A stretch of DNA of 64,000 bases. Origin: Pseudomonadales bacterium (GTDB lineage: Bacteria > Pseudomonadota > Gammaproteobacteria > Pseudomonadales > Halieaceae). Under the pieces are notes generated by a model, which was not told where the DNA came from, made no database searches, and was given only the letters and a program-made list of their open reading frames with translations. The position numbers were made by a program, and so were the translations under genes. Each line of letters starts with the position of its first letter. Position 1 is the stretch's first letter. The DNA lies in assembly GCA_024234855.1 (NCBI GenBank), contig JACKNN010000006.1:54708-118707 (forward strand), given 5' to 3'. This document shows positions 29,637-47,808 of this stretch, in pieces.

Positions 29637-32600
29637 TCAGTGAAAATCACGCGAGCTCACCTGCAGGGACTGCAGTTCATGGGTGTAGTCGTACAGACCG
29701 CCGGCGATGATGTGGATGACGTTGTCCCTGGTCTCCAGGGTGCCGTTCACCAGCAGTAGCTGCGCGGACATCAATGGCTGGCGAAACTGCTGCTGGGTGC
29801 GCTGCCACACCACGATATTGCTGTTGCCGGTCTCGTCTTCCAGGGTGAGAAACAGCACGCCGGAGGCGCTGCCGGGGCGCTGGCGGCAGGTGACCAGTCC
29901 GGCGATGCGCACAAAGCGGTTGTTGCCCATCTGTGCCAGGTCGGCGTGGCGTTTGCAGCGGTCGAAAGGGGGGCGGTCGCGCAGCAGGCTCATGGGGTGC
30001 GCCCGCAGGGTGAGGCCGGTGGCGCGGTAATCGGCCAGCACCTCCTCCGCCACGCCCGGCGCCGGCAACTGTATGCCGTCATCGAAATAGCTGGCGGGCT
30101 CGGCCTGTTCCGACTGCAGCAGGGGGCGGGCCTGCTCCAGCGCCATGATCTGCCACTGGGACTGGTGGCGGTGGCCGCTGAGCGAGGCCAGCGCATCGGC
30201 ATCCGCCAGCGCTTCCATGTCGCGCTTGTCCAACTGCGCCCGCTGGCGCAGGTTGCTGACCTGGCGAAAGGGCGCCTGCTGGCGGGCTTCCACCACGCGC
30301 TGCGCGCCCTCCCTGCTGAGGCCTTTCACCAGCCGCAGCCCCAGGCGGATGGGCGGCTGCGCCGGCAGGCTTGATCGACCCTCCAGAAGTTGGTGATCCC
30401 AGTCGCTGTGATTGACATCGATGGGCAGCACGGTCACGTCGTGGCGCCGGGCGTCCTGCAGTAGCTGGGACGGGCTGTAAAACCCCATGGGCTGGCTGTT
30501 GAGCAGGCCGGCAAAAAAGGCCGCCGGGTGGTGGCGCTTGAGCCAGGCCGAGACATAGGCCAGCAGGGCGAAGCTGGCGGAGTGCGACTCCGGGAAACCG
30601 TAGCCGCCAAAGCCCTTGATCTGTTCGAACAGGCGGCGGGCGAAATCCTCGTCGTAACCGCGCGCTATCATGCCCCTGGTGAGCTTCTGCTCAAAGCTCA
30701 GCAGCTTGCTGTTCCTGCCCCAGTTGGTGATGGCCCGGCGCAGCTGGTCCGCCTCGCCACCGCTGAAGCCCGCCGCGACCATGGCCAGGCGAATCACCTG
30801 TTCCTGGAAGATGGGCACCCCCAGGGTGCGCTCCAATACCGATTTGATGGCCTCGCTGGGATAGGCGATGTCTTCCAGCCCCTGCTTGCGTCGCAGGTAG
30901 GGGTGCACCATGTCGCCCTGAATGGGGCCCGGCCGCACGATGGCGATCTCGATCACCAGGTCGTAAAAGCACCCGGGTTTGAGCCGCGGCAGCATGGACA
31001 TCTGGGCTCGGGACTCGATCTGGAATACACCCACCGTATCGGCCGCCTGCAACATGCGATAGGTGGCCGGGTCCTCTTTCGGGATATCGCTGACGGTCCT
31101 GATGGCGGGGCAGTAGCGGTGCACCAGCTGCAGGCTTTTCCTGATTGCCGACAACATGCCCAGGGCGAGGATGTCCACCTTGAGCAGGCCCAGCGTCTCG
31201 ATATCTTCCTTGTCCCACTGGATAACCGTGCGGTCAATCATGCTGGCGTTCTCCACCGGCACCAGGGTGGATATAGGGCTGCGGGTGATGACGAAGCCCC
31301 CCACATGCTGGGACAGGTGGCGGGGAAAGCCGAGTATCTGTTGCACCAGGGTGTAGAACAGCTGCGCCAGCCGGCTGTGTCCCGCCACGCCCTGTTCCTC
31401 GAAACGCTTGGCTAAATCGGCGGTGCGATCCCACCAGGCCATGGACCTGGCCAGATCGTCCACGAATACCGGGTCCAGCCCCAGTGCCTTGCCCACGTCG
31501 CGCACCGCGCTGCGGGAGCGGTAGGTGATGATGGTGGCGGCCAGGGCGGCGCGCTTGCGGGAGTACTTTTCATAGATGTACTGGATCACTTCCTCCCGGC
31601 GCTCGTGCTCGAAGTCGACGTCGATATCCGGCGGCTCGTCCCGCTCCCGGGAGATAAAACGCTCGAACAGCAGGGAGATCTGCTCGGGGGATACCTCGGT
31701 GATGAACAGGCAGTAGCACACCACCGAGTTGGCCGCCGAGCCGCGGCCCTGGCACAGGATGGCGCGCTCGCGGGCGAAGCGCACGATGTCGTACACGGTG
31801 AGAAAGTAGTACTCGTAATCCAGCTCCTCTATCAATAGCAGTTCGTGGTCTATGCGCTGCTGTATCTCCGCGGGAACGCCTTTTGGCCAGCGCGCCGCGC
31901 TGCCCTGCACCACCAGCTCTCGCAGGTAGTGCTTGGCGGAATAGCCTTCCGGCACGACCTCCTCGGGGTATTCGTAGCGCAGCTCGTCCAGGCTGAATTT
32001 GCAGAGCCGGGAGATGCGCAGCGTTTCGGCCAGCAGGGCAGGGGGGTAGAGCTGCTGTAATTTGTCCAGCGCTCGCAAATGCTGCTGGCTGTTGGCCAGG
32101 CGCTTGCGTCCCAGCTGCGTGATGCTGGTATTGTGGCGCAGCGCCGTAAACACGTCGTGCAGGGGTTTGCGGTGCGCGCTATGCATCTGCACATTGCCGC
32201 AGGCCGCCATGGGAATGCGCAGTTCGCTCGCCAACTGGTACAGCGCCTGATAGCGCCGGTGCTCGTCATTGCCCAGCAGGTGAGTGACGCCGAGCCAGAC
32301 CCGGTCTTTGCACAGCCTGCCCAGTTGCAGGCCCCAGGCCAGGTTGCTGTCATCGTTGCCCTCGGGCAGCCAGATCAGCAGGCAGCGCTTGAGGTGGAAA
32401 ATGACATCGCGCAGGGTGGCCTGGTACTGCCCCTTGGGACTGCGTCGCCGGGCCATGCTGATCAGCCCGGAAAGCTCACTGTAAGCCGCCCGGGAGGGTG
32501 CCAGTGCCACCAGTTTTATGCCCTCGGCCAGTTGGAATTCACTGCCCACGATTAACTGGATGCCGTGTTCCTTCGCAGCCATGTGGGCCTTGACGATACC

Positions 32601-32738
32601 CGCCAGTGAGCACTCGTCGGTAATGGCCAGCGCGGCATAGCCCAGCGCGGCCGCGCGCTCCACCAACTCGTGGGGGTGGGAGGCGCTGCGCAGGAAGCTG
32701 AAACAGCTGAGGCAATGGAGTTCAGCGTAGGTTGACAT
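29637..32738 (-). CDS. dnaE2: Error-prone DNA polymerase DnaE2 (ImuC)
   Basis: 1033 aa. N-terminal PHP domain YAELHCLSCFSFLRSASHP and Pol IIIalpha core motifs (PDIDVDFEH, GLLKVDILALG). It has no tau/beta C-terminal extension. A LexA box lies directly upstream. Confidence 0.93.
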   Translation of the reverse strand: MSTYAELHCLSCFSFLRSASHPHELVERAAALGYAALAITDECSLAGIVKAHMAAKEHGIQLIVGSEFQLAEGIKLVALAPSRAAYSELSGLISMARRRSPKGQYQATLRDVIFHLKRCLLIWLPEGNDDSNLAWGLQLGRLCKDRVWLGVTHLLGNDEHRRYQALYQLASELRIPMAACGNVQMHSAHRKPLHDVFTALRHNTSITQLGRKRLANSQQHLRALDKLQQLYPPALLAETLRISRLCKFSLDELRYEYPEEVVPEGYSAKHYLRELVVQGSAARWPKGVPAEIQQRIDHELLLIEELDYEYYFLTVYDIVRFARERAILCQGRGSAANSVVCYCLFITEVSPEQISLLFERFISRERDEPPDIDVDFEHERREEVIQYIYEKYSRKRAALAATIITYRSRSAVRDVGKALGLDPVFVDDLARSMAWWDRTADLAKRFEEQGVAGHSRLAQLFYTLVQQILGFPRHLSQHVGGFVITRSPISTLVPVENASMIDRTVIQWDKEDIETLGLLKVDILALGMLSAIRKSLQLVHRYCPAIRTVSDIPKEDPATYRMLQAADTVGVFQIESRAQMSMLPRLKPGCFYDLVIEIAIVRPGPIQGDMVHPYLRRKQGLEDIAYPSEAIKSVLERTLGVPIFQEQVIRLAMVAAGFSGGEADQLRRAITNWGRNSKLLSFEQKLTRGMIARGYDEDFARRLFEQIKGFGGYGFPESHSASFALLAYVSAWLKRHHPAAFFAGLLNSQPMGFYSPSQLLQDARRHDVTVLPIDVNHSDWDHQLLEGRSSLPAQPPIRLGLRLVKGLSREGAQRVVEARQQAPFRQVSNLRQRAQLDKRDMEALADADALASLSGHRHQSQWQIMALEQARPLLQSEQAEPASYFDDGIQLPAPGVAEEVLADYRATGLTLRAHPMSLLRDRPPFDRCKRHADLAQMGNNRFVRIAGLVTCRQRPGSASGVLFLTLEDETGNSNIVVWQRTQQQFRQPLMSAQLLLVNGTLETRDNVIHIIAGGLYDYTHELQSLQVSSRDFH

Positions 32739-32741
32739 ATG

Positions 32742-32757
32742 CTGTATATATATACAG
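32742..32757 (-). promoter_or_regulatory. LexA (SOS) box upstream of dnaE2
   Basis: CTGTATATATATACAG is a perfect CTGT-N8-ACAG within TACTGTATATATATACAGTA, the gammaproteobacterial consensus. It ends 4 nt from the dnaE2 ATG (32736-32738). Confidence 0.85.
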
Positions 32758-32797
32758 TATTATGAGTTTGGTCAAATTCGATGCGTTTTGGTGCCGG

Positions 32798-33434
32798 TCA
32801 GTCATCCACGGGGCTGATGACACCCAGAGCGCCGCGGTTCAACACGTGGGTGTAAATCTCCGTGGTGGTTACATCCTCATGCCCCAGCAGTTTTTGTATG
32901 GTGCGAATGTCATAGCCATTCTGGAGCAAGCGGGTGGCGAAACTATGCCGAAAGGTGTGTGTTTTAACAGGTTTTCGGATGTCGGTTTTCGCAACGGCTG
33001 CCCTGATATGTTTGCGCAGTGCTGGCAGTAACGTAATGCGATCCTTATCGCCTTTGCCCTGACGTACGGTAATCGTGTTGAGTGAAAAATCTACATCCTT
33101 CACGCGCAGTGAAAGACATTCCTGCAATCTCAGGCCGCTGCCATAAAGCAATTCGACCATCAACCTGGGGGTGCCGGACATATGGCTGAGAATCGCTCGG
33201 GTTTCCTCGTGGCTCAGTACCGTGGGTAGCCTGCGGGTGGGTTTGGCATAGCTGAAAGATAGTGTCTCGGGTTCACGCCGGTAAAACCTGGTGTACAAAT
33301 ACATCAGGGCGTTTAATCCAGTGCAGGTAGGTGCGCTCCGTGGAAAACGCATAACCGCGAGCCCTCATGTCTGCCCGCAACTGGTCCATTAGCCGGGTAG
33401 ATCCGGCGGGAATAGGGACGGGTATATCATCCAT
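32798..33434 (-). pseudogene. intI: Integron integrase intI, inactivated by deletions and a frameshift
   Basis: C-terminal part: LLYGSGLRLQECLSLRVKDVDF...RQGKGDKDR, HTFRHSFAT, LLGHEDVTTTEIYTHVLNRGALGVISPVDD (IntI-type tail). An N-terminal fragment in another frame from ATG 33434 (STRLMDQLRADMRARGYAFSTERTYLHWIKR) stops at 33285. About 45 aa are missing after HWIKR. About 70 aa, including the IntI-specific insertion, are missing between LPALRKHI and RAAVAK. Confidence 0.85.
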
Positions 33435-33775
33435 GAAATACACGCTTCGAAAAATGCCTGATGCCAGATCATCACAGGGGCTTTGTGCGCGTCAACATGG
33501 TGGCCGTTTCTCATTGGAAATAATCAACTGTATCTCGACAGGGCGACTGTAACCCGTTGAAAGATTGAGCTATGCTCCAGCAGCGGCCGTGAACAATGGG
33601 CCCGAGATCCACTCGGGGCACACAGCCAGGGTACTCTGATTCAAAAAAAAGCAAATTAAGTAAAAATGGTCAGGTGCTTGATGAATGGAAGATGTTTTCA
33701 ATTCGGGATTACTTCTATATGTGAACAAGGGGCCGTTTCTAGTTCTGATTTAGTTCAACGATTAAGCTGTTATGA
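33435..33775 (+). promoter_or_regulatory. attI / cassette-promoter region (candidate crossover GTTATGA at 33769-33775)
   Basis: A/T-rich non-coding stretch between the intI 5' end and the first cassette ORF. The last GTTRRRY match before cassette 1 is at 33769. No Pc promoter could be assigned confidently. Confidence 0.4.
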
Positions 33776-33803
33776 GGCCTGCGTTCGGGTATCGCGCTGA
33801 CTG

Positions 33804-33992
33804 ATGGGTACTCTACTCCCAATTATTCTGTCCCTGGCAATGGCCCTTGTTGCCGGGATAGAACTTAAGCGTCAGCGGCTCGTGCTGCGACCTTTTGTCA
33901 CAAGAGCCTCTAGCCCTGTTTGGTATTGGACAGAGGTGTATATCTCTATTGGTCTATGCTTGGTTTTCTTTCGGCAGGGTTTGAGCGCGTAA
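33804..33992 (+). CDS. Cassette 1: small two-TM membrane protein, unknown function
   Basis: 62-aa ORF with two hydrophobic segments. It is the only sizeable ORF in the 333-bp cassette between attI and attC1. No clear SD. Confidence 0.45.
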   Translation: MGTLLPIILSLAMALVAGIELKRQRLVLRPFVTRASSPVWYWTEVYISIGLCLVFFRQGLSA

Positions 33993-34016
33993 TGGGTATT
34001 CTACATGCACCGGTCT

Positions 34017-34108
34017 CATAACAAGTTGCTCAAATCCGTTCCGGCCCTGCGGGCCTCCACCGGACAGCCCAACCTGCGGTTCGTCTGCCGTTTAGCAAGG
34101 CGTTAGGT
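34017..34108 (+). repeat. attC site 1
   Basis: CATAAC-AAG-TTGC ... GCAA-GGC-GTTAGGT. R''/L'' pair with L'/R', and the core GTTAGGT is at 34102-34108. Confidence 0.8.
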
Positions 34109-34115
34109 GGACTAA

Positions 34116-34604
34116 TTGATTGAGCACGCCGACACATTTTATTTACTCGCTGAAGTTGCTATCGCAGTTGCTGGTTTCGCTGGTGTTGCAACCGTCTTTG
34201 GTGGACGCGAAAAGCGATTTCGCGATGCAGAGTTACTGCGACTAAGAGGGCTTTTTCAGCTTTCAGCACTTGTCCTGGCGGGTTGTTTTGGCATTGCTTC
34301 ATGTCAAGCGGCGGGATTATCTAACGAACAAACCATGTCACTCGTTTCAATGATTCTACTCGTTGCTTACGGGTTGGTTGTAATGGATGTGCCCGTAAAA
34401 GCTATACGGCTCTACCGAAAGAAAGAAACAACAGTCTCGCTTGGTGCTCTGACTGCTGCTTGGTCTTTGTATGTATTCGGTTTGCCGCTACTAACAATTA
34501 ATGCGTTCTTGCTTCGGCACGAATGGCCTCTAATCTTACTATTCTCATTGTCTATACTTACGGCGATTTGGCAGTTTTATCGGTTAGTAACGAAGGTTAA
34601 CTAG
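34116..34604 (+). CDS. Cassette 2: four-TM membrane protein, unknown function (paralogue of the cassette at 38753-39265)
   Basis: 162 aa from a TTG start. Hydrophobic helices. Shares AGFAGVATVFGGR / LLRLRGLF / WQFYRLV blocks with the later cassette protein. Confidence 0.6.
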   Translation: MIEHADTFYLLAEVAIAVAGFAGVATVFGGREKRFRDAELLRLRGLFQLSALVLAGCFGIASCQAAGLSNEQTMSLVSMILLVAYGLVVMDVPVKAIRLYRKKETTVSLGALTAAWSLYVFGLPLLTINAFLLRHEWPLILLFSLSILTAIWQFYRLVTKVN

Positions 34605-34612
34605 TGGATCCA

Positions 34613-34686
34613 CCTAACAAGTCAAGGCTGCAAGGGCGCTTCGCGCCGGGACGGCCTTACGGTCGCCCCAGCTTGAAGCGTTAAGT
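34613..34686 (+). repeat. attC site 2
   Basis: CCTAAC-AAG-TCAAGGCTG ... CAGCTTGA-AGC-GTTAAGT. The unpaired G in CAAGGCTG is typical of attC extrahelical bases. Confidence 0.85.
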
Positions 34687-35029
34687 GTCCGTGATCGCTC
34701 AACTAGAGAATACCGCTCCTCTTTCACAGGTCTGGTTTGTGCATGACTATATTCAGCTGAAGTTTCAAGATCGTACAGTTACAGTACTAAACACTCCAAA
34801 GTTACGGCTCTCTTCCGGTATGGTACTGAACAGGAGCGATGATGGCTTTTGCGACAATTTGGTATCTCAAATTGGGCAACCCATTGATGAAGCGCGGCTC
34901 ATCGAGGAAGAGCTCTTTTTCATAAGGTTTGCATCCGGCGTGGAGTTAATGGTTCCGCTAAACGATGAAGCTGTAAATGGCCCAGAAGCCTTAGAGTTGC
35001 CAGGAGCCTACGTTGTATTCAACACTTAA
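34685..35029 (+). CDS. Cassette 3: soluble 114-aa protein, unknown function
   Basis: The ORF fills the cassette. Its stop TAA lies inside the attC3 R'' box (CTTAAC). No recognisable motif. The start (GTG 34685 or 34691) is uncertain. Confidence 0.55.
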   Translation: MSVIAQLENTAPLSQVWFVHDYIQLKFQDRTVTVLNTPKLRLSSGMVLNRSDDGFCDNLVSQIGQPIDEARLIEEELFFIRFASGVELMVPLNDEAVNGPEALELPGAYVVFNT

Positions 35030-35101
35030 CAAGGGCAGGCAGTGCGCTCCCTCCGGTCGCCGGACGCGCGTACCGCGCGCCCGCTGCTGCAAGCGTTATG
35101 T
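35025..35101 (+). repeat. attC site 3
   Basis: CTTAAC-AAG-GGCAGGCAG ... CTGCTGC-AAGC-GTTATGT, with a GC-rich variable centre. Confidence 0.8.
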
Positions 35102-35132
35102 GCGCTGGACAGGCACTGTCCGAGGAGTATGA

Positions 35133-35403
35133 TTTGGGTATGGACACAACACTGAAGAATCTGCCTCTTGGTATGAATTGCAGAGGCTCGGTCTAGGTCA
35201 TGAATTCCTAGATATAGTTCTAGAGATGCTTAGCTCAATCGAACAAAGTCCATTGACTTACCCAATCGTGCACCGAAACGTTCAGAGGAGTGCTACCCAG
35301 ATTCCCATTCGCCATTTTCTATTTCTTGCAAGACGCAGAAATATCGGTCATTTCTGTCATGCATGGCAGTAGGGATCCATCCCGATGGCAGCGGCGCACA
35401 TAA
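35133..35403 (+). pseudogene. Cassette 4: ParE/RelE-family toxin remnant (frameshifted, N-terminally truncated)
   Basis: The frame of the track ORF gives SWYELQRLGLGHEFLDIVLEMLSSIEQSPLTYPIVHRNV. A +1 shift near 35290 gives RFPFAIFYFLQDAEISVISVMHGSRDPSRWQRR, the typical ParE/RelE C-terminus ending in the attC4 R'' box. No antitoxin ORF lies upstream. Confidence 0.7.
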
Positions 35404-35458
35404 CAAGCACAAGCAACCGGGACTGGCGTTCCGGCAGCCCTTGTTGTGGGCGTTATGT
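35397..35458 (+). repeat. attC site 4
   Basis: CACATAAC-AAG-CACAAGC ... CCTTGTTGTGG-GC-GTTATGT. A short (62 bp) attC. Confidence 0.8.
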
Positions 35459-35482
35459 GTCTCAGGGCATCAGGTCCAGGAT

Positions 35483-35950
35483 ATGAAAATGTACAACTAC
35501 GAACTTGAGCATATTTGTTCCGTCAAAGTTACTCTCCAGAACCCTCCTGAGGTCATCGGGCCTACGCCGGATGGGCTTCGTCTGAACATATATATCACAG
35601 GAGGAGAGGTGCGAGGTCCCCGACTAAATGGGAAAGTTCTTCCCGTGGGTGCAGATTGGCTGACCATTCGCAGTGATGGAGTGGGCGTCTTAGATATTAG
35701 AGCTACTATAGAGACTGACGATGGCGCACTGATCTATCTCTCTTACCAAGGCCTCGCCGATGCCGGTGAGGATGGGTACGAAAAATTCATCGAAGGGAAC
35801 CCTCCGTCTCCTGTTCCCCTTCGTGGAGCGCCACGCTTTCAGACAGCACATCCCGATTATCTCTGGCTAAATAGAATACAGTGCCACAATGTAGGTGAAG
35901 CTGACTTGGAAAGCTGGGTAGTGGGCTATGACCTCTATACGGTCAAATAG
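35483..35950 (+). CDS. Cassette 5: DUF3237 (UPF0311) family protein
   Basis: LNIYITGGEVRGPRLNGKVLPVGADWLTIRSDGVGVLDIRATIETDDGALIYLSYQG matches my recollection of the DUF3237 beta-barrel family. The start is ATG 35483. Confidence 0.7.
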   Translation: MKMYNYELEHICSVKVTLQNPPEVIGPTPDGLRLNIYITGGEVRGPRLNGKVLPVGADWLTIRSDGVGVLDIRATIETDDGALIYLSYQGLADAGEDGYEKFIEGNPPSPVPLRGAPRFQTAHPDYLWLNRIQCHNVGEADLESWVVGYDLYTVK

Positions 35951-35996
35951 GGTCGGCTAACGGGGCTTGGGCGGCATAGGGCAAGCTACGGCACTT

Positions 35997-36052
35997 CACA
36001 TAACAAGGCACGCAACCTGACGGCTACGCCGCCGGTTCGTTTGGCGTTAGGA
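35997..36052 (+). repeat. attC site 5
   Basis: CACATAAC-AAG-GCACGCAACC ... GGTTCGTTTG-GC-GTTAGGA (56 bp). Confidence 0.75.
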
Positions 36053-36117
36053 GTTCCTACCGCCCCAAAATCCACCTCTTGCTAAAAATGCCTTAGTGGT
36101 ATATTTTTTATACCATT

Positions 36118-36378
36118 ATGAAGTTTCAGTACGACCAAAGAAAAAGTGCCTCCAATCGCAAAAAGCATGGGATTGATTTTGAGCAGGCTCAATCTCTTTG
36201 GGATGACCCGAACTTGGTGGAATTGGCAGCGCGGTCTGACGATGAGGCAAGATCAATCGTGATTGCTCGCTTCAATCGCCAATACTGGTCAGCCGTATTT
36301 ACATATCGCGATGACGAGATTCGATTAATTTCGGTCAGGCGATCTCGGAAAGCTGAGGTAGAGCTTTATGAAAGCTAA
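36118..36378 (+). CDS. brnT: Cassette 6: BrnT-family (DUF497) ribonuclease toxin
   Basis: MKFQYDQRKSASNRKKHGIDFEQAQSLWDDPN is the BrnT N-terminal signature. 86 aa. It overlaps the downstream antitoxin gene by 11 nt. Confidence 0.85.
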   Translation: MKFQYDQRKSASNRKKHGIDFEQAQSLWDDPNLVELAARSDDEARSIVIARFNRQYWSAVFTYRDDEIRLISVRRSRKAEVELYES

Positions 36379-36601
36379 AGATTTCGACAAAAAATTCGAC
36401 CAGGGTAAGGAAGACATAATTGATGACCTGGATATTTCCAGTCTCAAACGGCCGAATCAAACACCTCGACGAGTTAACGTGGATTTTCCCGAATGGATGA
36501 TCATCTCTCTTGACAAAGAGGCGGCAAGACTGGGAGTTACTCGACAATCCATTATCAAAGTCTGGCTGGCGGAACGCCTTGAACACACCCCTAACAAGTA
36601 A
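36368..36601 (+). CDS. brnA: Cassette 6: BrnA (CopG/RHH-type) antitoxin
   Basis: RVNVDFPEWMIISLDKEAARLGVTRQSIIKVWLAERL is the ribbon-helix-helix C-terminus typical of BrnA. The stop lies inside the attC6 R'' region. Confidence 0.8.
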   Translation: MKAKDFDKKFDQGKEDIIDDLDISSLKRPNQTPRRVNVDFPEWMIISLDKEAARLGVTRQSIIKVWLAERLEHTPNK

Positions 36602-36663
36602 AGGCTGCAAGGCGCCTTCGGCGCGGGACGTCGTAACCGGCGCCCCAGCTTGAAGCGTTAGCA
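36590..36663 (+). repeat. attC site 6
   Basis: CCTAAC-AAG-TAAAGGCTG ... CAGCTTGA-AGC-GTTAGCA. Same class as attC2. Confidence 0.85.
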
Positions 36664-36850
36664 CACTCAGGAGATGAAGAGATGTCTGCTCCTTACCTTT
36701 TCAGGGATGGCGCAACCCAATGAACAACCAGATTACGAACAAGCGGAGAAGTACATAGTCGAGTGTGCTACCGATTGGGCAGAGTCGGTTGTGACCGGGG
36801 ATGTAGGACGGAGAAAGGTCTAATTTACGTTATCACTTCAAGCTAAATGA

Positions 36851-36911: not shown

Positions 36912-36933
36912 GTCTTTTCAGTTGGAGTGTTGT

Positions 36934-40468: not shown

Positions 40469-41053
40469 ATGTATATACCCGCACAATTTGCAATATCCGA
40501 CAGGGCTGAGATATTCGCCTTTATAGAAGCCAATGCCTTTGGCCAGCTTATCTCGACGGTAGACAACAGGCTCTTTGTTACCCACCTGCCTTTTCTCGTT
40601 TCCGGCGACAGGACCCGGCTGTTCGGCCATGTGGCCAGGCAGAACCCACAGCACCTCGATCTGGACGGTCAGGAGATACTGGTCACTTTCGAGGGGCCAC
40701 ACGATTACATTTCGCCCTCCTGGTACGGCAGCCCGGGCGTCCCCACCTGGAACTACCAGGCGGTTCACGTTTACGGCAAGTGTGCTGTATTTAATGAGCC
40801 CGGCAGGCTGGCAGAGCTGGTGGGCCGCCTTACGGAAAAATACGAATCGGCCTTTGAGGTGCCATGGCGGCCCGAGTACAAGGCGACGATGCTGGGCGCC
40901 ATTGTCGGTATAGAGATTCTCATTGGCGAGGTTCAGGGCAAGTTCAAGCTGAGCCAGAACCGGCCGGACAATGATCGACTGGCAGTGATAAAGGCGCTGG
41001 AAGAAAACGGCTCCACCAAACTGGCCGCCGCCATGAAAGTCCATAAATCCTGA
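40469..41053 (+). CDS. PaiB-family FMN-binding transcriptional regulator-like protein
   Basis: MYIPAQFAISDRAEIFAFIEANAFGQLIS...HLPF...GKFKLSQNR are PaiB family hallmarks. The start is ATG 40469. Confidence 0.8.
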   Translation: MYIPAQFAISDRAEIFAFIEANAFGQLISTVDNRLFVTHLPFLVSGDRTRLFGHVARQNPQHLDLDGQEILVTFEGPHDYISPSWYGSPGVPTWNYQAVHVYGKCAVFNEPGRLAELVGRLTEKYESAFEVPWRPEYKATMLGAIVGIEILIGEVQGKFKLSQNRPDNDRLAVIKALEENGSTKLAAAMKVHKS

Positions 41054-41094
41054 TAGAATCCAGTATCGTACAACCATGTGATGAGAATATTTTG

Positions 41095-41688
41095 ATGAGT
41101 GAAGCTCTGGACCAATCCGTATTGAATCAGGCGTTTGTCAACGCCCGCACAACCAACAAGTTTACCGGGCGGGACGTGCCGGATGCGCTGATTTTACAGC
41201 TGTACGAGCTGATGAAGTGGGGGCCTACCTCGATGAACTGCCAGCCCGGCCATTACGTCATGGTTAAGAGCGAGGCGGCGAAGCAGCGTTTGATTCCGGC
41301 CCTGATGCCGGGCAACCGGGACAAGACCCTGGGCGCACCGGTTACGGTGATTGTCGCTACTGATACCCGGTTTTATGAAAACCTGTCGAGCCAGTTCCCC
41401 GCCAACCCAAAGGCCGGTGAGATGTTTGAGTCCAGTGCCGAGCTGTCCCGGGTGACGGCATTCAGGAATGGCACCTTGCAGGGGGCCTACCTGATACTGG
41501 CCGCCCGCATGCTGGGCCTGGATTGTGGGCCGATGAGCGGCTTTGATAACCGCGCGGTCGATGCCGAGTTCTTTCCGGAAGGACGATATCAATCCAATTT
41601 CCTGGTCAATATCGGCTTTGGCGACCCCGCTGGCAATCACCCCAGGGGGCCGAGGCTCGCATTTGATCAGGCCGTGGAGGTTGTTTGA
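41095..41688 (+). CDS. Nitroreductase-family protein, RutE-like (malonic semialdehyde reductase-like)
   Basis: FVNARTTNKF...LMKWGPTSMNCQP...AFRNGTLQGAYLILAARMLGLDCGPMSGFD closely follows the RutE pattern. Confidence 0.8.
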   Translation: MSEALDQSVLNQAFVNARTTNKFTGRDVPDALILQLYELMKWGPTSMNCQPGHYVMVKSEAAKQRLIPALMPGNRDKTLGAPVTVIVATDTRFYENLSSQFPANPKAGEMFESSAELSRVTAFRNGTLQGAYLILAARMLGLDCGPMSGFDNRAVDAEFFPEGRYQSNFLVNIGFGDPAGNHPRGPRLAFDQAVEVV

Positions 41689-41711
41689 TGACCGGTAGTG
41701 AGTAGGGGCCT

Positions 41712-42017
41712 ATGTTCGCGGTGATATTCAAGGCGGAGATCGCTCAGCTGGATGCTGAATATAGCGATATGGCGGCCCATATGAGGGAGCTGGCTATCAG
41801 CCAGTACGGATGTACCCAGTTCACCAGTTGCACCGAGGGTAACAGGGAGATTGCGATCTCTTACTGGGAGTCCCAGGACCAGATCCGGCGCTGGAAGCAG
41901 GACGCGGCACACCTGGTGGCGCAAGACAAGGGGCGTTCAAAATGGTACAGCGCGTATACCGTGGAAGTGGTCGAGCTGGTGCGCAGTTATGGCTCGGGCA
42001 GCCTGGCACCCTTATGA
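41712..42017 (+). CDS. Antibiotic-biosynthesis-monooxygenase (ABM) domain protein
   Basis: 101 aa. VIFKAE...ISYWESQDQIRRWKQ is the ferredoxin-like ABM fold signature. Confidence 0.7.
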   Translation: MFAVIFKAEIAQLDAEYSDMAAHMRELAISQYGCTQFTSCTEGNREIAISYWESQDQIRRWKQDAAHLVAQDKGRSKWYSAYTVEVVELVRSYGSGSLAPL

Positions 42018-42274
42018 ATGAGAAATTGCCTATGCCCGGCTCCGGGCGCGCAGCCGATGTCAGGCAAAGGCGGGGTACCGCGGTGCTGCTGTGTGTGCTC
42101 GCCCTGGCGGCCTGCAGCCAGCGCCAGGTGTACGACACCATCCAGAACAATCAGCAACTGGAGTGCCAGAAGCTGCCGGGCACCCAGTACGAGGAATGCA
42201 TGAAGCAGGTCTCGGAGCCCTATGATGACTATAAGCGGGAGCGGGACGAACTGGTAAAGGAAAAGCCACCGTAG
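42014..42274 (+). CDS. Small lipoprotein, unknown function
   Basis: Lipobox LALAAC after a basic N-terminus. 86 aa from ATG 42014. Overlaps the ABM gene stop (ATGA). Confidence 0.6.
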   Translation: MNEKLPMPGSGRAADVRQRRGTAVLLCVLALAACSQRQVYDTIQNNQQLECQKLPGTQYEECMKQVSEPYDDYKRERDELVKEKPP

Positions 42275-42413
42275 CATGACCGTGGCTTGCGGGAGCTGGC
42301 GCCCGGACCCCGGCCTTTGCGGTGGATTCGCGCCGCAATCAACCGTACTATCGGCAGGGCCAGTCACTGGCACATTCCTGTCCAAGAACCACAAGCAGCC
42401 GCATAGGAGAGAT

Positions 42414-42965
42414 ATGGCCGAGCGATTTTCCTCCCTGCAGGACCGGCACATCCGGTTTATCGCGGAGCAGCACCTGTTTTTCGTGGGCACCGCCGGCCGG
42501 GAGGGTTATATCAATGTCTCGCCCAAGGGCATGGACAGTTTCAGGGTAACCAGCCCCACGGAGGTCGCCTGGCTCAACCTCACCGGCAGCGGCAATGAGA
42601 GCGCCGCGCACGTGGCAGAGAATGGCCGCATGACCATCATGTTCTGCTCCTTCGGCAAGCAGCCCCTGATCATGCGATTGTATGGCCAGGCGACGGTGGT
42701 GCATCCCCGGGATGGGGACTGGCCCGCCCTGCTGGCATTGTTTCCGGCCGAACCGGGCGCGCGGCAGATCTTCCGTCTCACGCTGGACCTGGTGCTAACC
42801 TCCTGCGGCTACGCCGTTCCCCGCTACGAATTGAAAAGCGAGCGGCCAACCCTGACCAGGTGGACGGAGCAAAAGGGGCCGGATGGTATCAGGCAGTACT
42901 GGCAAGAAAAAAATACCCTGACCCTGGACGGCAAGCCCACCGGCATTTTCGCGGATATCGAATAG
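42414..42965 (+). CDS. Pyridoxamine 5'-phosphate oxidase-family (FMN-binding split-barrel) protein
   Basis: HIRFIAEQHLFFVGTAGREGYINVSPKG...LNLTGSGNESAAHV...MFCSF...LRLYG pattern. The start is ATG 42414. Confidence 0.75.
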   Translation: MAERFSSLQDRHIRFIAEQHLFFVGTAGREGYINVSPKGMDSFRVTSPTEVAWLNLTGSGNESAAHVAENGRMTIMFCSFGKQPLIMRLYGQATVVHPRDGDWPALLALFPAEPGARQIFRLTLDLVLTSCGYAVPRYELKSERPTLTRWTEQKGPDGIRQYWQEKNTLTLDGKPTGIFADIE

Positions 42966-42998
42966 CTCCGCCGTCCAGACTCCCCAAAAGGATATCAA

Positions 42999-43334
42999 AT
43001 GAGTGATGTACCGCCCTGCCCTGAATGCAAGTCACCGTACGGCTACGATGACGGCAATATGTTCGTCTGCCCGGAGTGTGGTCACGAGTGGTCAAAGGAC
43101 GCCGCTACCGCGGGCGATGATCCTGTCATCAAGGATGCCAACGGCAATGTGCTGAGCGACGGTGATACCGTCACCGTGATCAAGGACCTCAAGGTCAAGG
43201 GCACCTCGCTGGTGGTCAAGGTGGGCACCCGGGTCAAGAATATCCGGCTGGTGGAGGGCGACCACGATATTGATTGCAGGATCGATGGCATAGGTGCGAT
43301 GAAACTGAAATCGGAATTTGTCAAAAAGGCCTGA
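42999..43334 (+). CDS. yjdM: Zinc-ribbon protein YjdM (PhnA)
   Basis: [10 protein letters not shown]...CPECGHEW zinc ribbon plus [23 protein letters not shown]...[19 protein letters not shown]. 111 aa. Confidence 0.9.
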
Positions 43335-43369
43335 ACCGGGTTTGCATCACTATCTGAGCGGAGCCTGTG

Positions 43370-43822
43370 ATGAGCATTGAAAAGGCGTACAACTTTCGGG
43401 CGGCAGCTCATGGCGTGGCTACTGCCGGGCGGGTCGAGCCGGATCAACTGGCGCAACTGGGCAGCGAGGGCTTTGAGGTTGTGATCAATCTGCTGCCCGA
43501 GTCCAGCCAGTACGCGGTCGCCGATGAGCGGCATATCGTGGAGGGGCAGGGCATCGAATACCAGTACCTGCCGGTGGATTTTGCCAATCCGACCCTGGCG
43601 GACTACCGCCAGTTCTGCCAGCTGATGCAGCGGGCAGGGGAGCGCAAGCTGCTGATTCACTGCGCCGCCAACTACCGGGTCAGCGCCTTTTACTCCCGCT
43701 ATGCCATCGAGACCGGTCTTTGGTCGCAGGCGCAGGCGGATGAATTTATGCGGTCTGTGTGGCAGCCCGAGGAACACCCACCCTGGCCTCGCTGGCTGCA
43801 GGAGGTCGCATGCCTGGACTGA
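43370..43822 (+). CDS. Protein-tyrosine-phosphatase-like / DUF442-like domain protein
   Basis: FEVVINLLPES...LLIHCAANYRVSAF resembles the HC(x)nR phosphatase-like loop. The C-to-R spacing is not the canonical Cx5R, so the activity is uncertain. Confidence 0.5.
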   Translation: MSIEKAYNFRAAAHGVATAGRVEPDQLAQLGSEGFEVVINLLPESSQYAVADERHIVEGQGIEYQYLPVDFANPTLADYRQFCQLMQRAGERKLLIHCAANYRVSAFYSRYAIETGLWSQAQADEFMRSVWQPEEHPPWPRWLQEVACLD

Positions 43823-43912: not shown

Positions 43913-45343
43913 TCAGGCAAACACCCCGTGGATATACCACTTGCTGGCCAGCCGGTCGCGAAACACCCAGTACTGCTGACCGCTGCCGTCCCCGGCGATG
44001 TAATAGTCCCGGCTCACCGCTTCCTGCCACCAGTTGTCCTCTATCCGCTCCGGACCATGCAGCAGGGTCAGCGCACCGTTCCAGTACAGCCGCTGGCGGG
44101 ATTGTCGCAGCGGCTGGGGCCGGGGCATGAGCCAGAACGGGCGCTGGGCGCCGGTGTGGCCGGTACCGGGCTCACCGCCAGAGCAGTCGCTGCTGACATG
44201 CACGGCAAATTCCGGCAGGTGCTCGTCCCGACAACCGACCTTTTCGATGGCCTGTAGCCCCAGCCGGCTGCGCAGCCGATCCAGCAGGTGGGCCAGGGGT
44301 TCCCGCTGCCTGCCGGGATGGAACAGGTCGCTATTCTCCGGTTGCCCCGGGTGTAGATTGCGGCAGCTGAGGATGAGGCCCTCCACGCCGGTCGCCAGTT
44401 GCAGCTGGTCGAAGCAAATGCCGGTGAGCTGGTGCCAGCTTTTCCAGTCGCTGTGACTGCTGGCACTGCGCACACCCACCTCCCGCAGGCTGCGGTCCAT
44501 GCCGACCAGTTGCCAGCAGATTTCGGCAGTTTGCAGCTGGGTACTGCGCAGGAAGGCGCACAGGGACTGCAGCAACATTTGTGCAGCCGGCAGCAATTCG
44601 GCGTTGCCCTTTACTTCATAGCCAAACCAGTACTCGTCGCTGAACGTCGCCGGGGGTTGGTAATCTGCCTGCCTGTCCTCCCGCTGACCCAGCACTTGCT
44701 GCAGGAAGTGGGTGAATTCCCTGCCGCAGCGCCGACCCAGGGCGGCCGGTGGCAGCGCCAGGATATCGCCCAGACTGTGCAGGCCTGCCCGGCGCAGTGA
44801 GTCGACGGCAGTGGGAAAGGCATCGAGCAGGCGCAGCGGCAGGGGCGCGAGCCGCTCGGTGAGGGGGCGGGTTATCTCCAGTGCGGTATCCGCTGGCGTA
44901 AATGACAGCAGCCAGGCGGCTTTGGGGGTGGGGGCCAGGCCGTATTCCACGCTGTAGCCCCGGCGACCAATGCCGCGGCTGACCTCGGCCAACAGGTTGT
45001 CCAGGCCCCGGAACAGGTTCAGGCAGCCACCGATTTCCAGCTGCAGGCAGTCCTGGCGCCAGCTGAAAAGGCCGGGTGTGATGCCGTAGGCCCAGCAGCA
45101 CAGTTGCTGCAGGCAGCGCTGCTCGGCGCCCTCGTCACGCTCCAGCAGCCGCAGTGGCTCACTATTGACCAGGGCGTGCACTGTCGCGGTACCCATACCC
45201 GGCCGGATACCGAGAGCGGCAGCGCAGTTATTGGCGCACAGGACCCGCTGCCTGGCCAGCACCACCACCGCCTGTTCCTCGCAGCGGCTCAGGCACTGCA
45301 GTGGCAACTGGTTGAAGCGCAGGCAGAGCCACAGGCTCACCAC
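43913..45343 (-). CDS. imuB: ImuB, Y-family-polymerase-like mutasome subunit
   Basis: SLWLCLRFNQLPLQCL...VVVLA at the N-terminus and a Y-family fold without the catalytic acidic triad context. The start is placed at GTG 45343 or 45340, downstream of the LexA box. The track ORF start (45478) would include the operator. Confidence 0.85.
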   Translation of the reverse strand: MVSLWLCLRFNQLPLQCLSRCEEQAVVVLARQRVLCANNCAAALGIRPGMGTATVHALVNSEPLRLLERDEGAEQRCLQQLCCWAYGITPGLFSWRQDCLQLEIGGCLNLFRGLDNLLAEVSRGIGRRGYSVEYGLAPTPKAAWLLSFTPADTALEITRPLTERLAPLPLRLLDAFPTAVDSLRRAGLHSLGDILALPPAALGRRCGREFTHFLQQVLGQREDRQADYQPPATFSDEYWFGYEVKGNAELLPAAQMLLQSLCAFLRSTQLQTAEICWQLVGMDRSLREVGVRSASSHSDWKSWHQLTGICFDQLQLATGVEGLILSCRNLHPGQPENSDLFHPGRQREPLAHLLDRLRSRLGLQAIEKVGCRDEHLPEFAVHVSSDCSGGEPGTGHTGAQRPFWLMPRPQPLRQSRQRLYWNGALTLLHGPERIEDNWWQEAVSRDYYIAGDGSGQQYWVFRDRLASKWYIHGVFA

Positions 45344-45403
45344 CAGCCCCCCGGGTGGCAGGCGATATGTCGGGGGGAGAGTGCGCCCATTATGAATTGA
45401 ATA

Positions 45404-45419
45404 CTGTACATATATACAG
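45404..45419 (-). promoter_or_regulatory. LexA (SOS) box upstream of imuB
   Basis: CTGTACATATATACAG within TACTGTACATATATACAGTA, about 60 nt upstream of the proposed imuB start. Confidence 0.85.
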
Positions 45420-45668
45420 TATCTCCCGTTCGGGAGGGCCCTGTCCAGCCCGGCGGGCGCCCGGCCGCAGTGCACCATCCTGGTTTCCAGATGTTACATA
45501 ATGTTACGCGAGAGTGCGCCCGTCCCGCTCATGCAGATCGCGGTAAGTAAATGAAAAAATAATAAATATTTCACAATATTAAACTTGTTCGGGCGGATTT
45601 CAGGGAGGATAGTGGTAACACATTGCCAGCAGGCAATGTTACTTAAAGTATCAAAATGGAGTTTAGTA

Positions 45669-46016
45669 ATGAAAGCTATGATTGCCATACCCGCACTTTG
45701 CCTGGCCATGAACGCCGCAGCGGGCTGTCCGGTCACGCATCCGCGGGAGCAGCCGGTAATACCCGATGCCGCCGTGGCCAGCAAGCAGGAGATGCACCGG
45801 GCACAGTTGGCGGCGGAGCAGTATCTGCTGCAGGGCAAAGCCTACCTGGAATGCGGACTCATGAATCGTCGCCAGTACAGCCAGTTGTTGAGCCAGCTGG
45901 AAATTTTTTCCGAGCAGTACAACAACGAAGTGATCGAGTACCAGATTCGCCGGCAGATGGTTGCGGAAAATGACCAGGCGGGTGTCCTGCCGGTCACCGG
46001 GGGGTCAGCGGACTAG
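45669..46016 (+). CDS. Secreted/periplasmic 115-aa protein, unknown function
   Basis: Signal peptide MKAMIAIPALCLAMNAAAG. The mature part is helical (QEMHRAQLAAEQYLLQGKAYLEC). The start is ATG 45669. Confidence 0.6.
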   Translation: MKAMIAIPALCLAMNAAAGCPVTHPREQPVIPDAAVASKQEMHRAQLAAEQYLLQGKAYLECGLMNRRQYSQLLSQLEIFSEQYNNEVIEYQIRRQMVAENDQAGVLPVTGGSAD

Positions 46017-46024: not shown

Positions 46025-46237
46025 TCAGCCGCCGACGCCCGCGTTTTCGAGCAGGTAGGTGATTACGAACTTCATCAGGAAGCCGAAGATACCCATGGCC
46101 AGCCCGATGTAGAGGATCATTGTGCCGAATTTGCCGGCATTGCTGCGCCTGGCGAGGTCCCAGACGATATACATCATGAGCAGGATGAGGCCGCCCACGC
46201 CCAGGACGACACCGTATTCTGTCAGCCATTCGTCCAT
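46025..46237 (-). CDS. DUF2788-family small membrane protein
   Basis: 70 aa, two TM helices. The WDLARRSNAGKFGT loop resembles DUF2788 proteins. Confidence 0.6.
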   Translation of the reverse strand: MDEWLTEYGVVLGVGGLILLMMYIVWDLARRSNAGKFGTMILYIGLAMGIFGFLMKFVITYLLENAGVGG

Positions 46238-46264: not shown

Positions 46265-46702
46265 TCAGGCGGCGACAATTACCTCTGCCTCGAGGTGGGA
46301 CTCGGCCAGCAGGGAGCGGGTGATCAGGCAGGCCTCCTCGGCTTTTTCCAGCAGGCGCTGTGCCTTGTCAGCGTCAGTGCCGGCAGGCACCGTCAGCCTG
46401 GCGTTGACAGTGAACGCCGTGAACCGGGTAACCCGCTCTACCCGCTCCAGTACGCCCTCGGCGGAGCATTCGAGGTTGGTCCACTCGAGCTTGGAAGCCC
46501 TGGCAATCGCCCGGAACGTCAGTATGAAGCAGTCGGCGACAGCGCCAACCAGCAGGGTCTCGGGAGACCACTGGTCACCCGGGCCGCCGAATTCGGCCGG
46601 TGGGGCGGTGACAAGCTGAGGCAGGTCGTCCGCCTTGAGCATGATATTGCCGGTGGTCTCGGCGCTGGCGCTGACGTGGTAGTGATGAGGTAAGTCTTGC
46701 AT
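46265..46702 (-). CDS. OsmC/Ohr-family peroxiredoxin-like protein
   Basis: GPGDQWSPETLLVGAVADCF...EEACLITRSL contains the two conserved Cys contexts of OsmC. The start is ATG 46702. Confidence 0.8.
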   Translation of the reverse strand: MQDLPHHYHVSASAETTGNIMLKADDLPQLVTAPPAEFGGPGDQWSPETLLVGAVADCFILTFRAIARASKLEWTNLECSAEGVLERVERVTRFTAFTVNARLTVPAGTDADKAQRLLEKAEEACLITRSLLAESHLEAEVIVAA

Positions 46703-46782
46703 GGTAGTCGCATCCCTGTGTCCGGTTTCTGGCGGCAATTATAGCCGCAAGCCGGTACTGCCCTCACCTTATAATTTCCCCG

Positions 46783-47532
46783 TCAGGCCATCGGCGAGCA
46801 GGCCTCCATGGCTGCGCCGTGCTGCCTGCCCGCCTGCCACACCGGCAATTCCCACAGCTGTGGCTGCCCGGGCACGTCTTCTGCCGGGGGCAGGTCCACG
46901 TCGATATGCTGGTTGCCGCCGCGCTGCTTGAGGATATGGACCCTGCGGTATTCCCGCATCTGCAGGCGCAGGCTGGCGGGGGAGTGGTTGTGGGCGGCCG
47001 CCGTGGGGCGAAACAGTACCGCCAGGCTGTCGCCGCCGCTGGCGGCCACCTGCAGTTTGCGCAGCTCGCTGTAGCTGTAGTTGTGAGTTCCCAGCCAGCT
47101 GAACACGGCGCTGCAGGTGCCGCTGCGCAGGGCCTGCTCGGTGCTCCACAGCAGGTCCTGGCGGTTTTTCGGGTGCACCAGTAATACCTGCCGGGTATCG
47201 ATACCCCGGGCCGCCAGCAGCGGCGCATAGGGTATATAGGGCGGAGCGATGAATGCCTGCCAGCGCCCCCGCTCGCTGAGCTGTTCCATGGCGGGCAGAA
47301 ACAGTCCCATGGCGCCCAGTCCATTGCTGTCGCTCAATAATTCAATGGTGCTGTCCAGGGGCCAGCCGCCCTGGTCCAGCTGCCTATCCAGGCTGGTATA
47401 GCCAGTAGCCAGGCCGTTCTGGCTGTGACAGTGGCTGTCGCTGTTGGCGGAGGGTTCATGGTGGTGAAAGCGGCGATGGCGACCGCGCCAGGTATCATTG
47501 CGGGTGATGATCTGTTCGAGCACTTCGTTCAT
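46783..47532 (-). CDS. imuA: ImuA, RecA/SulA-like mutasome subunit
   Basis: TGYTSLDRQLDQGGWPLDSTIELL...FIAPPYIPYAPLLAARGID...LWSTEQALRSGTCSAVFSWL is the ImuA pattern. The start is ATG 47532, 35 nt downstream of a LexA box. Confidence 0.85.
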   Translation of the reverse strand: MNEVLEQIITRNDTWRGRHRRFHHHEPSANSDSHCHSQNGLATGYTSLDRQLDQGGWPLDSTIELLSDSNGLGAMGLFLPAMEQLSERGRWQAFIAPPYIPYAPLLAARGIDTRQVLLVHPKNRQDLLWSTEQALRSGTCSAVFSWLGTHNYSYSELRKLQVAASGGDSLAVLFRPTAAAHNHSPASLRLQMREYRRVHILKQRGGNQHIDVDLPPAEDVPGQPQLWELPVWQAGRQHGAAMEACSPMA

Positions 47533-47566
47533 GGCCTTGCTCCGGGGAGGGTTCCCTTCAAATAAA

Positions 47567-47582
47567 CTGTATAAACATACAG
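47567..47582 (-). promoter_or_regulatory. LexA (SOS) box upstream of imuA
   Basis: CTGTATAAACATACAG within AACTGTATAAACATACAGTA (CTGT-N8-ACAG). Confidence 0.85.
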
Positions 47583-47808
47583 TAGTATCGAAGCGGGCAG
47601 AATGCAAGTCGTGGCATGTGTGAATTTAGCGGGTGAGGGCAGGGGGTGTGATCTGCGGATGCGCGGTGTGTGCAGGTCCCGTTCATAATGGTTTCAAATG
47701 TGACCGAAACTTCCTAAAGTGCCCCATGTGGCGGTATTTGGCTGGCAGGGAAGCAATTCGCAATCCCCCTCCCCCGGACATGACCGATTAATTGACGCAG
47801 TGGCGACA

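Follow-up and report, generated by a model that had tools for sequence, protein, structure and literature searches.

We found that the 64-kb stretch of DNA analysed here (the window) very probably carries the imuABC SOS mutagenesis cassette of a gammaproteobacterium from the marine family Halieaceae, with an old, family-wide split into three units, each under its own LexA operator. The case is built on gene identities, on the quality of the operators, and on operator conservation and its tie to the split. The three genes lie on the minus strand in the canonical order, and profile matches confirmed both this arrangement and the identities given in the original prediction. The imuA gene (46783..47532) matched the equivalog NF033429 (ImuA_translesion) at 208.3 bits (cutoff 150) and encodes the SulA/RecA-like accessory protein of the imuABC cassette. 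The dnaE2 (imuC) gene (29637..32738) scored 1403 bits with NF004225 'error-prone DNA polymerase' (cutoff 939), in an alignment beginning at residue 2, and fell short of the cutoffs set for replicative DnaE equivalogs; its product is a DnaE2/ImuC error-prone polymerase of the C family.

The imuB gene (43913..45340) matched Pfam IMS (PF00817) at 28.5 bits (cutoff 23.2), and the source annotation of its homologs, at 63-99 % identity, is 'protein ImuB'. The gene itself had been recognised before, but its start moves from 45343 to the second GTG at 45340, which opens the conserved M-S-L-W. A profile search of PDB gave Pol IV 7yll_A as the sole match (E = 5e-5), and the alignment to this structure places a Cys where the S-I-D-E motif has its catalytic Glu. 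At the N-terminus, LWLCLRF stands where the D-x-D motif of Y-family polymerases is expected. The protein is Y-family-like and lacks the catalytic acidic residues, as ImuB does.

Unlike the canonical single operon, which is contiguous and has one promoter, the cassette shows two gaps, 1.44 kb between imuA and imuB and 11.17 kb between imuB and dnaE2. Both gaps had been noticed originally, with sizes of 1.3 and 11.2 kb that are adjusted here. Opposite-strand genes are present in both of them, so each of the three units needs its own promoter.

The window contains exactly three instances of the pattern CTGT-N8-ACAG (chance expectation 0.69), at the three positions previously reported. The predicted LexA operator of imuA is a 20-mer (47565..47584, core 47567-47582, minus strand) that scored 34.4 bits with a matrix derived from 65 imuA operators found in relatives (consensus TACTGTATATATATACAGTA); it lies 35 nt before the ATG, with a GGAG Shine-Dalgarno sequence between box and ATG. 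The predicted imuB operator (45402..45421, core 45404-45419, minus strand, 37.6 bits) is located about 60 nt upstream of the gene and matches TACTGTAYATATATACAGTA at 20/20 positions. The predicted dnaE2 operator (32740..32759, core 32742-32757, minus strand, 35.6 bits) stops 3 nt short of the ATG and leaves no room for a Shine-Dalgarno sequence. The earlier statement that two of the three boxes fit the 20-mer is better given as a gradation, with 20/20 positions for imuB, 19/20 for dnaE2 and 17/20 for imuA. The scan with a LexA matrix that had been suggested was run on the 64-kb window and recovered only these three as high-scoring sites (34-38 bits, all upstream of cassette genes); the next best site reached -3.7 bits, and the background at most 8 bits (top score in 20 shuffles, 7.9 bits). 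We did not see a lexA gene in the 64-kb window.

A -35 element of the dnaE2 promoter, TTGACC, was predicted at 32770..32775 (minus strand), 12 nt before the operator core, and TTGAC(A/G) stands 11-12 nt before the dnaE2 box in 10 related loci. The -10 element is only loosely definable within the AT-rich operator. On this geometry, the leader of the dnaE2 transcript could measure 0 to ~6 nt, and the mRNA would be leaderless or nearly so.

Three genes lie between imuA and imuB, as originally noted. The first, osmC (46265..46738, minus strand; PF02566, 62.5 bits), encodes an OsmC-family peroxiredoxin, occupies the imuA-imuB interval in many Halieaceae loci as well as in the outgroup L092, and is probably co-transcribed with imuA, downstream of which it lies. 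The second encodes a DUF2788 small membrane protein (46025..46237, minus strand; PF10981, E = 7e-20); an overlapping 74-aa ORF (46005-46229) was rejected as a wrong frame, with a mean tblastn identity of 57 % against 83 % for DUF2788 in 47 loci. The third, at approximately 45669..46016 on the plus strand, is a lipoprotein-like gene with a signal peptide and an AAGC lipobox that had no Pfam match; it reached a mean of 117 bits in 34 loci, and we rejected a minus-strand candidate ('orf114') with a mean of only 56 bits. This plus-strand gene separates the imuA unit from imuB.

It may be argued that there are really two units, with imuB mainly read through from the imuA promoter and its own operator serving as a redundant internal site or roadblock. 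The genes imuA, osmC, DUF2788 and imuB are co-stranded and the interval from imuA to imuB has no predicted intrinsic terminator on the minus strand, so some read-through into imuB is possible. However, the opposite-strand gene between DUF2788 and imuB is conserved, and in some relatives (e.g. L044, L047, L050, L052 and L062) imuA and imuB are 3-8 kb apart. Moreover, imuB has a predicted promoter of its own (45418..45447, minus strand), with a -35 TGGACA, an 18-nt spacer and a -10 GATACT that overlaps the left edge of the operator. The arrangement T(G/A)GACA, 17-18 nt, (A/G)ATACT, 6 nt, ATG is present in 62/68 imuB loci, which keeps both elements at a fixed distance from the operator. We therefore regard an imuB that depends mainly on the imuA promoter as unlikely and treat imuB as the second of three units.

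Across Halieaceae, a perfect box was found upstream of imuA in 65/66 loci, upstream of imuB in 67/78 and upstream of dnaE2 in 10/10, although the related loci are phylogenetically non-independent and such counts exceed the number of independent observations. The dnaE2 layout, in which 3 or 4 nt separate box and ATG, recurs in 13 of the 18 listed related loci (Halieaceae and sister lineages), and extra dnaE2 loci from metagenomes and IntI contexts left the box pattern unchanged. The CTGT and ACAG arms are conserved while the spacers vary (~140 sites). The imuB box is absent from four relatives in which imuA adjoins imuB (L056, L057, L070 and L083). Among distant loci, none of the 47 in which imuB adjoins dnaE2 has a box before dnaE2, which is present before 7 of 14 detached dnaE2 genes. 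An SOS box before each detached gene is thus found in the window and kept in relatives. The operators track the split in these comparisons, a pattern that fits selection for co-induction, and the suggestion that selection has retained LexA control gains support from boxes that are kept in relatives and absent from contiguous loci.

The three-way split with its boxes was seen in ~80 loci of Halieaceae, with ImuB identities as low as 63 %, and the split also occurs in the sister lineages L092-L094, where an integron is lacking. As the whole family and these sister lineages share it, the disruptions must be ancient; judged from this distribution, the split is family-wide and not recent. The comparison of synteny that had been proposed for dating the insertions thus bore out a shared layout, but it makes the gap between imuB and dnaE2 older than the arrival of the integron.

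This gap contains, next to imuB, a convergent chromosomal block (40433..43822, plus strand) of FMN_bind_2, nitroreductase, ABM-like, PNPOx, PhnA/YjdM and PTP-like genes, with spacers too short for attC sites; PhnA is convergent with imuB in many relatives. An integron cassette array (33435..40419, plus strand) occupies the next part and has a low GC content (46-53 % vs ~64 % in the flanks). At least 10 attC-like sites (R'' YTAAC..., R' GTTRRRY), recognised by eye, lie on the plus strand between 34017 and 40419 and bound cassettes oriented away from intI. Their approximate positions are 34017-34107, 34612-34686, 35025-35100, 35398-35458, 35997-36053, 36588-36662 and 36845-36910, with further attC-like sites ending at ~38755, 39413 and 40419. 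An IS3-family element (ORFs 37427-38601, minus strand) cuts one attC.

The intI gene (32798..33434, minus strand), co-directional with dnaE2, is a pseudogene. Compared with the intact 327-aa IntI of L095, it has lost residues 47-79, carries a frameshift and lacks residues 181-253, the IntI-specific insert; with TIGR02249 it scored 218.9 bits, under the cutoff of 265, and no intact integrase with this insert is present in the window. The same lesions occur in L001-L006, while intI is intact in L091, L095, L169, L170, L171 and L174. From these lesions we conclude that the integrase is dead in this genome. In several Halieaceae a chromosomal integron recurs between imuB and dnaE2, its intI lying directly upstream of dnaE2. 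The gap that the cassettes fill measures 11 kb in the window, ~29 kb in Haliea sp. E17 and ~58 kb in OY770025.1.

The foreign composition of the integron, the IS3 element and a cassette content that differs even between near-identical strains (L001 vs the window) could suggest that a single operon was recently broken by the integron and other genes, and that the extra boxes are new or incidental. We consider this very improbable, since split and boxes are shared by the ~80 Halieaceae loci, the split is found in the integron-free L092-L094, and lineages that carry intI and those that lack it have homologous dnaE2 promoters and operators. The order of events read from these sequences makes the integron a later tenant of a pre-existing gap.

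Integron integrases are classically controlled by LexA (Guerin 2009; Cambray 2011, PMC3108266), and in some relatives the intI promoter contains a LexA box, namely in Haliea sp. E17 (L169, 5966-5981), L090, L091 and L105. The box at 32742-32757 might accordingly be read as SOS control of intI rather than of dnaE2, a reading that we find hardly tenable. The box is located downstream of the intI stop codon and 3 nt from the dnaE2 ATG, it is kept in relatives free of intI (L010, L016, L042, L047, L051, L062 and L066), and Haliea sp. E17 carries both boxes together. Moreover, neither the pattern search nor the matrix scan of the 64-kb window found a LexA site in the intI promoter region. That the palindromes are merely AT-rich promoter elements or chance inverted repeats unbound by LexA is scarcely credible. 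The sites do overlap with predicted -10 regions, and such regions are AT-rich in any case, but 17-20 of their 20 positions agree with the gammaproteobacterial LexA consensus of 20 bp. They also have no counterpart elsewhere in the 64 kb, keep their arms while the spacers vary, and precede a textbook LexA-regulated cassette.

With three LexA-operator units as the preferred reading, the locus would be organised on one strand as operator-imuA-osmC-DUF2788, operator-mini-ORF-imuB and operator-dnaE2. A consensus gammaproteobacterial LexA box overlapping each promoter would allow LexA to repress all three units. DNA damage would then lead, through RecA-stimulated cleavage of LexA, to their joint release, and ImuA, ImuB and DnaE2 would become available for translesion synthesis. 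From what is established for the SOS regulon and for imuABC of P. putida, C. crescentus and M. tuberculosis, we infer that LexA binds the sites, that the units are co-induced and that the proteins act as a mutasome.

Regarding the imuB unit, a mini-ORF of 24 codons (MYSIQFIMGALSPRHIACHPGGWW; 45337..45411, minus strand) starts with an ATG within the imuB operator and its TGA overlaps the GTG of imuB (GTGA). In relatives the mini-ORF is conserved, with 20-40 codons, and ends on the imuB start. It is in frame in 52/58 loci with an ATG in the box and open in all 52, and its length classes comprise 12 in-frame against 5 out-of-frame; it represents an upstream ORF kept in frame and open to a stop overlapping the main start. 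The mini-ORF is not universal, as the internal ATG is missing in 10/68 imuB boxes and six ATGs are out of frame. The ATG falls exactly at the transcription start expected from the conserved imuB promoter. From this geometry, the imuB transcript would begin at the ATG within the operator, the mini-ORF would be translated leaderless and the stop-start overlap would couple its translation to that of imuB. Leaderless mRNAs and translationally coupled upstream ORFs are general bacterial mechanisms. The likeness lies in an ATG 7 nt after a conserved -10, the lack of a Shine-Dalgarno sequence and the stop-start overlap (GTGA/ATGA); the difference would be a start codon embedded in a predicted LexA operator. 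If the mini-ORF is functional, the imuB operator would double as coding sequence.

The arrangement in three loci with an SOS box before each gene has already been described, as the review PMC3901139, citing Erill 2006, mentions a configuration with a separate locus and its own SOS box for each gene. The present cassette resembles it in having one SOS box per detached gene. It differs, as far as the review's account of that configuration goes, in that the three units keep their order within 18 kb, or 30-60 kb for some relatives, and are not dispersed, and in a layout fixed across a whole family. According to the same review, imuABC forms a single LexA-regulated operon in P. putida (lexA2-imuA-imuB-dnaE2) and in Alphaproteobacteria (Abella 2004, Erill 2006, Galhardo 2005). 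The three proteins, their order and strand, and the LexA operator before imuA are common to both forms. In contrast, the cassette described here is interrupted twice by opposite-strand genes, and imuB and dnaE2 have predicted promoters and operators of their own.

In Vibrio, the presence of a mutagenesis cassette correlates with where the superintegron is located (PMC3323433), and in the literature searched we found no description of an integron inside a mutasome locus. Integron and mutasome are both SOS modules, and the intI-promoter boxes of the relatives named above resemble those of LexA-controlled integrases. The difference is that here the integron sits inside the mutasome locus, its intI directly upstream of dnaE2 and pointing the same way, and that the intI of the window is a pseudogene without a box. 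It is conceivable, though we propose it only tentatively, that the Halieaceae mutasome is a composite SOS 'variation module', with an integron anchored inside it and imuB expressed via an operator-embedded leaderless mini-ORF. Should both features be functional, the locus would link cassette recombination to error-prone synthesis, physically as well as transcriptionally. In at least one lineage, L091, a single LexA box appears to drive an intI-dnaE2 operon.

The three mutasome genes, all on the minus strand, proved to be what the original prediction had named them. The product of dnaE2 (29637-32738, 1033 aa) matched the NCBIfam model NF004225 'error-prone DNA polymerase' with 1403 bits (cutoff 939), and imuA (46783-47532) matched the ImuA equivalog NF033429 with 208 bits (cutoff 150). 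The product of imuB (43913-45340) showed a weak Y-family IMS domain, and the source names of its homologues, which share 63-99 % identity with it, read ImuB in hundreds of cases. DNA polymerase IV was the sole match when a profile of the ImuB homologues was searched against PDB, whereas phmmer with the ImuB of the window found no match there. In the profile alignment to polymerase IV, the Asp position of the S-I-D-E motif is retained and the catalytic Glu is replaced by Cys. ImuB is known for its inactivity, and the Cys at this position agrees with that. An exact-sequence look-up recovered proteins identical to the DnaE2 of the window from the metagenome-assembled genome (MAG) GCA_024234835.1 and from several metagenomes; the same look-up returned no match for ImuB because gene callers choose another start. 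From its ImuB homologues, the window was assigned to Halieaceae, where it falls among Haliea and Halioglobus. A DUF3604 gene (27621-29531, minus strand) lies directly 3′ of dnaE2 on the same strand, and such a gene is found 3′ of dnaE2 in loci L088 and L170 too.

The pattern CTGT-N8-ACAG occurs exactly three times in the 64 kb, against 0.69 expected, and the claim that each gene has its own predicted LexA box was borne out. The distance from the end of the box to the start codon is 3 nt for dnaE2 (box at 32742-32757; ATG), about 60 nt for imuB (45404-45419) and 35 nt for imuA (47567-47582; ATG). We scored them with a LexA matrix built solely on imuA operators, taken from 65 relatives (consensus TACTGTATATATATACAGTA), and obtained 35.6, 37.6 and 34.4 bits for dnaE2, imuB and imuA, respectively. 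The highest score elsewhere in the window was -3.7, and the maximum of 20 shuffles was 7.9. No lexA gene was seen within the 64-kb window. From the established knowledge of the SOS response and imuABC, summarised in PMC3901139, we infer a model of co-induction in which LexA would repress the three promoters, DNA damage would free them together, and this joint release would supply the three mutasome components.

Going from imuA to imuB along the minus strand, we found osmC, a gene for a DUF2788 small membrane protein (46025-46237, minus strand; PF10981, E = 7e-20) and an opposite-strand lipoprotein-like gene (about 45669-46016, plus strand), all widely conserved among relatives. The lipoprotein-like gene belongs to no Pfam family, is conserved in 34 Halieaceae loci, and is likely the reason why imuB requires its own promoter. 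Two further reading frames were rejected as genes: orf74 (46005-46229, minus strand) is a wrong-frame shadow of the DUF2788 gene and orf114 (45494-45838, minus strand) a wrong-strand shadow of the plus-strand lipoprotein gene. On the 3′ side of imuB lies a convergent plus-strand block (40433-43822) encoding FMN_bind_2, nitroreductase, ABM-like, PNPOx, PhnA/YjdM and PTP-like proteins. We rejected the idea that these are fossil integron cassettes, since their 24-40 nt spacers are without attC and PhnA, convergent with imuB in related loci as well, belongs to the conserved chromosomal surroundings of imuB. Rfam recognised no known RNA in 29000-48500.

The relation between operators and gene order was compared over 80 genome loci around imuB, annotated by tblastn and a box search, with a perfect box counted when it lay no more than 260 nt upstream of the gene. 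Such a box precedes imuA in 65 of 66 related loci, imuB in 67 of 78 and dnaE2 in all ten loci that have dnaE2 within 10 kb, related loci being non-independent samples in all these counts. In the four loci where imuA abuts imuB (L056, L057, L070 and L083), imuB has no box. The outgroup picture came from a metagenome scan with DnaE2: imuB abuts dnaE2 in 47 distant loci, and in none of them does a box precede dnaE2, whereas 7/14 detached dnaE2 genes have their own. The sister lineages L092-L094 share the order box-imuA-osmC-box-imuB, followed after about 1 kb by box-dnaE2; between imuB and dnaE2 they have no integron but a lipocalin gene on the opposite strand. The integron was therefore rejected as the primary cause of the imuB-dnaE2 split.

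Judged from these box counts and the layout in the sister lineages, the mutasome split is ancient, the predicted LexA operators go along with it, and the integron came into the second gap later. The synteny comparison proposed for dating the insertions thus points to an old split, and the suggested selection for kept co-induction gains support from boxes that are present on detached genes and absent where genes abut. Across the family, predicted LexA operators stand before detached mutasome genes and not before attached ones, so that Halieaceae serve as a clean natural experiment on how a regulon is maintained; the pattern supports the view that strong selection keeps error-prone synthesis under tight SOS control. 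Passages of PMC3901139 already describe a split cassette in which each gene has an SOS box, so the main finding is confirmatory; the Halieaceae layout, well supported and family-wide, adds comparative evidence that predicted operators go with the split.

The predicted imuB promoter, T(G/A)GACA and (A/G)ATACT with a spacer of 17-18 nt, was found in 62/68 loci, and its -10 element forms the left flank of the box. The imuB box is nearly always CTGTATATATGTACAG, and most imuB boxes carry an internal ATG, 7 nt past the -10 and exactly at the expected transcription start. This ATG opens a mini-ORF (MYSI...; 24 codons in the window, at 45337-45411, minus strand) that closes with a TGA sharing bases with the imuB start, as GTGA or ATGA depending on the locus. 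We compared the sequences upstream of imuB in loci L007-L086. The ATG is in the frame of the mini-ORF in 52/58 ATG-bearing boxes, and the frame is open in 52/52. In-frame lengths fall into 12 classes of 20-40 codons and out-of-frame ones into five length classes, and an inner motif, (M/L)-G-x-L-P-P, is conserved. We read the mini-ORF as a putative leaderless, operator-embedded uORF, translationally coupled to imuB.

At dnaE2, ten related loci have TTGAC(A/G) 11-12 nt before the box and the end of the box 3 nt before the ATG; the predicted -35 of the window is TTGACC (region 32736-32775). The box-3 nt-ATG layout was noted in L010, L016, L047, L062, L066, L069, L078, L087-L089, L169 and L171, and in two unrelated distant lineages (L113 and L137) the box is 1 nt from the ATG. 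Between box and ATG, no room is left for a Shine-Dalgarno sequence, so dnaE2 is probably transcribed without a leader or with one no longer than about 6 nt.

The integron cassette array (33435-40419, plus strand) is low in GC, and its attC sites, from about 34017 to 40419, were called by eye from direct-repeat output and sequence, three custom scanners having been too strict or noisy. An IS3-family element (37290-38755, minus strand; orfA 38302-38601, orfB 37427-38305) sits within an attC or cassette boundary. One cassette contains two small ORFs that overlap on the plus strand (36118-36378 and 36368-36601) and may be a BrnT-type toxin-antitoxin pair, given that genes annotated as BrnT_toxin occur in the arrays of L001, L167 and L169. 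The intI gene is a pseudogene (32798-33434, minus strand) ending 41 nt before the dnaE2 operator. Compared with an intact relative, it lacks residues 47-79, through a lesion that also shifts the frame, and the IntI-specific residues 181-253, which are deleted in frame; its promoter region retains no LexA site. All metagenome copies (L001-L006) share these lesions. In L001, from MAG GCA_024234835.1 (1-9400, compared with 33435-40419 of the window), dnaE2 is identical to that of the window and intI is dead in the same way. The cassettes differ (Abhydrolase, Excalibur), and a DDE_Tnp_1 IS adjoins intI in place of the IS3 element; even with a dead integrase, the array has thus undergone change.

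An intact or decayed intI lies directly upstream of dnaE2 and co-directional with it in the window, L078, L087, L088, L090, L091 and L095. The same arrangement was found in 4/8 sampled IntI-homologue contexts: in cultured Haliea sp. E17 (GCA_048323675.1), P0130 and P0154 the genes are 60-134 nt apart, and in P0197 they are separated by 1.35 kb containing three small genes on the opposite strand. Haliea sp. E17 (L169, 5966-7045) reads LexA box, intI, TTGACG, 11 nt, LexA box, 3 nt, dnaE2 ATG, and the same contig carries imuB about 29 kb upstream; the imuB of OY770025.1 is about 58 kb upstream of intI. In L091 (3971-4995), the sole box lies 18 nt before the intI ATG, and the 3 nt that separate the intI stop from the dnaE2 ATG leave no box there; this layout points to an intI-dnaE2 operon under a single predicted LexA box. 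In other Halieaceae (Parahaliea mediterranea, Congregibacter brevis and two MAGs), intI is located elsewhere. By gene order, the chromosomal integron recurs at one site in several Halieaceae (L078, L087, L088, L090, L091, L095, L169, L170, L171 and L174 beside the window), its array filling the imuB-dnaE2 gap.

We found no description of the intI-dnaE2 linkage in the literature searched. In Vibrio, a passage of PMC3323433 notes that presence of the mutagenesis cassette correlates with superintegron location. If confirmed, the mini-ORF coupled to imuB, the near-leaderless dnaE2 and the integron anchored at the dnaE2 promoter in several lineages would be new details of moderate interest. A second case of an integron integrase adjoining the mutasome, possibly an independent one, comes from a distant lineage whose DnaE2 is 56 % identical: in L105 (1070-8105), a contiguous box-imuA-imuB-dnaE2 cassette directly follows an intact intI that has a LexA box.
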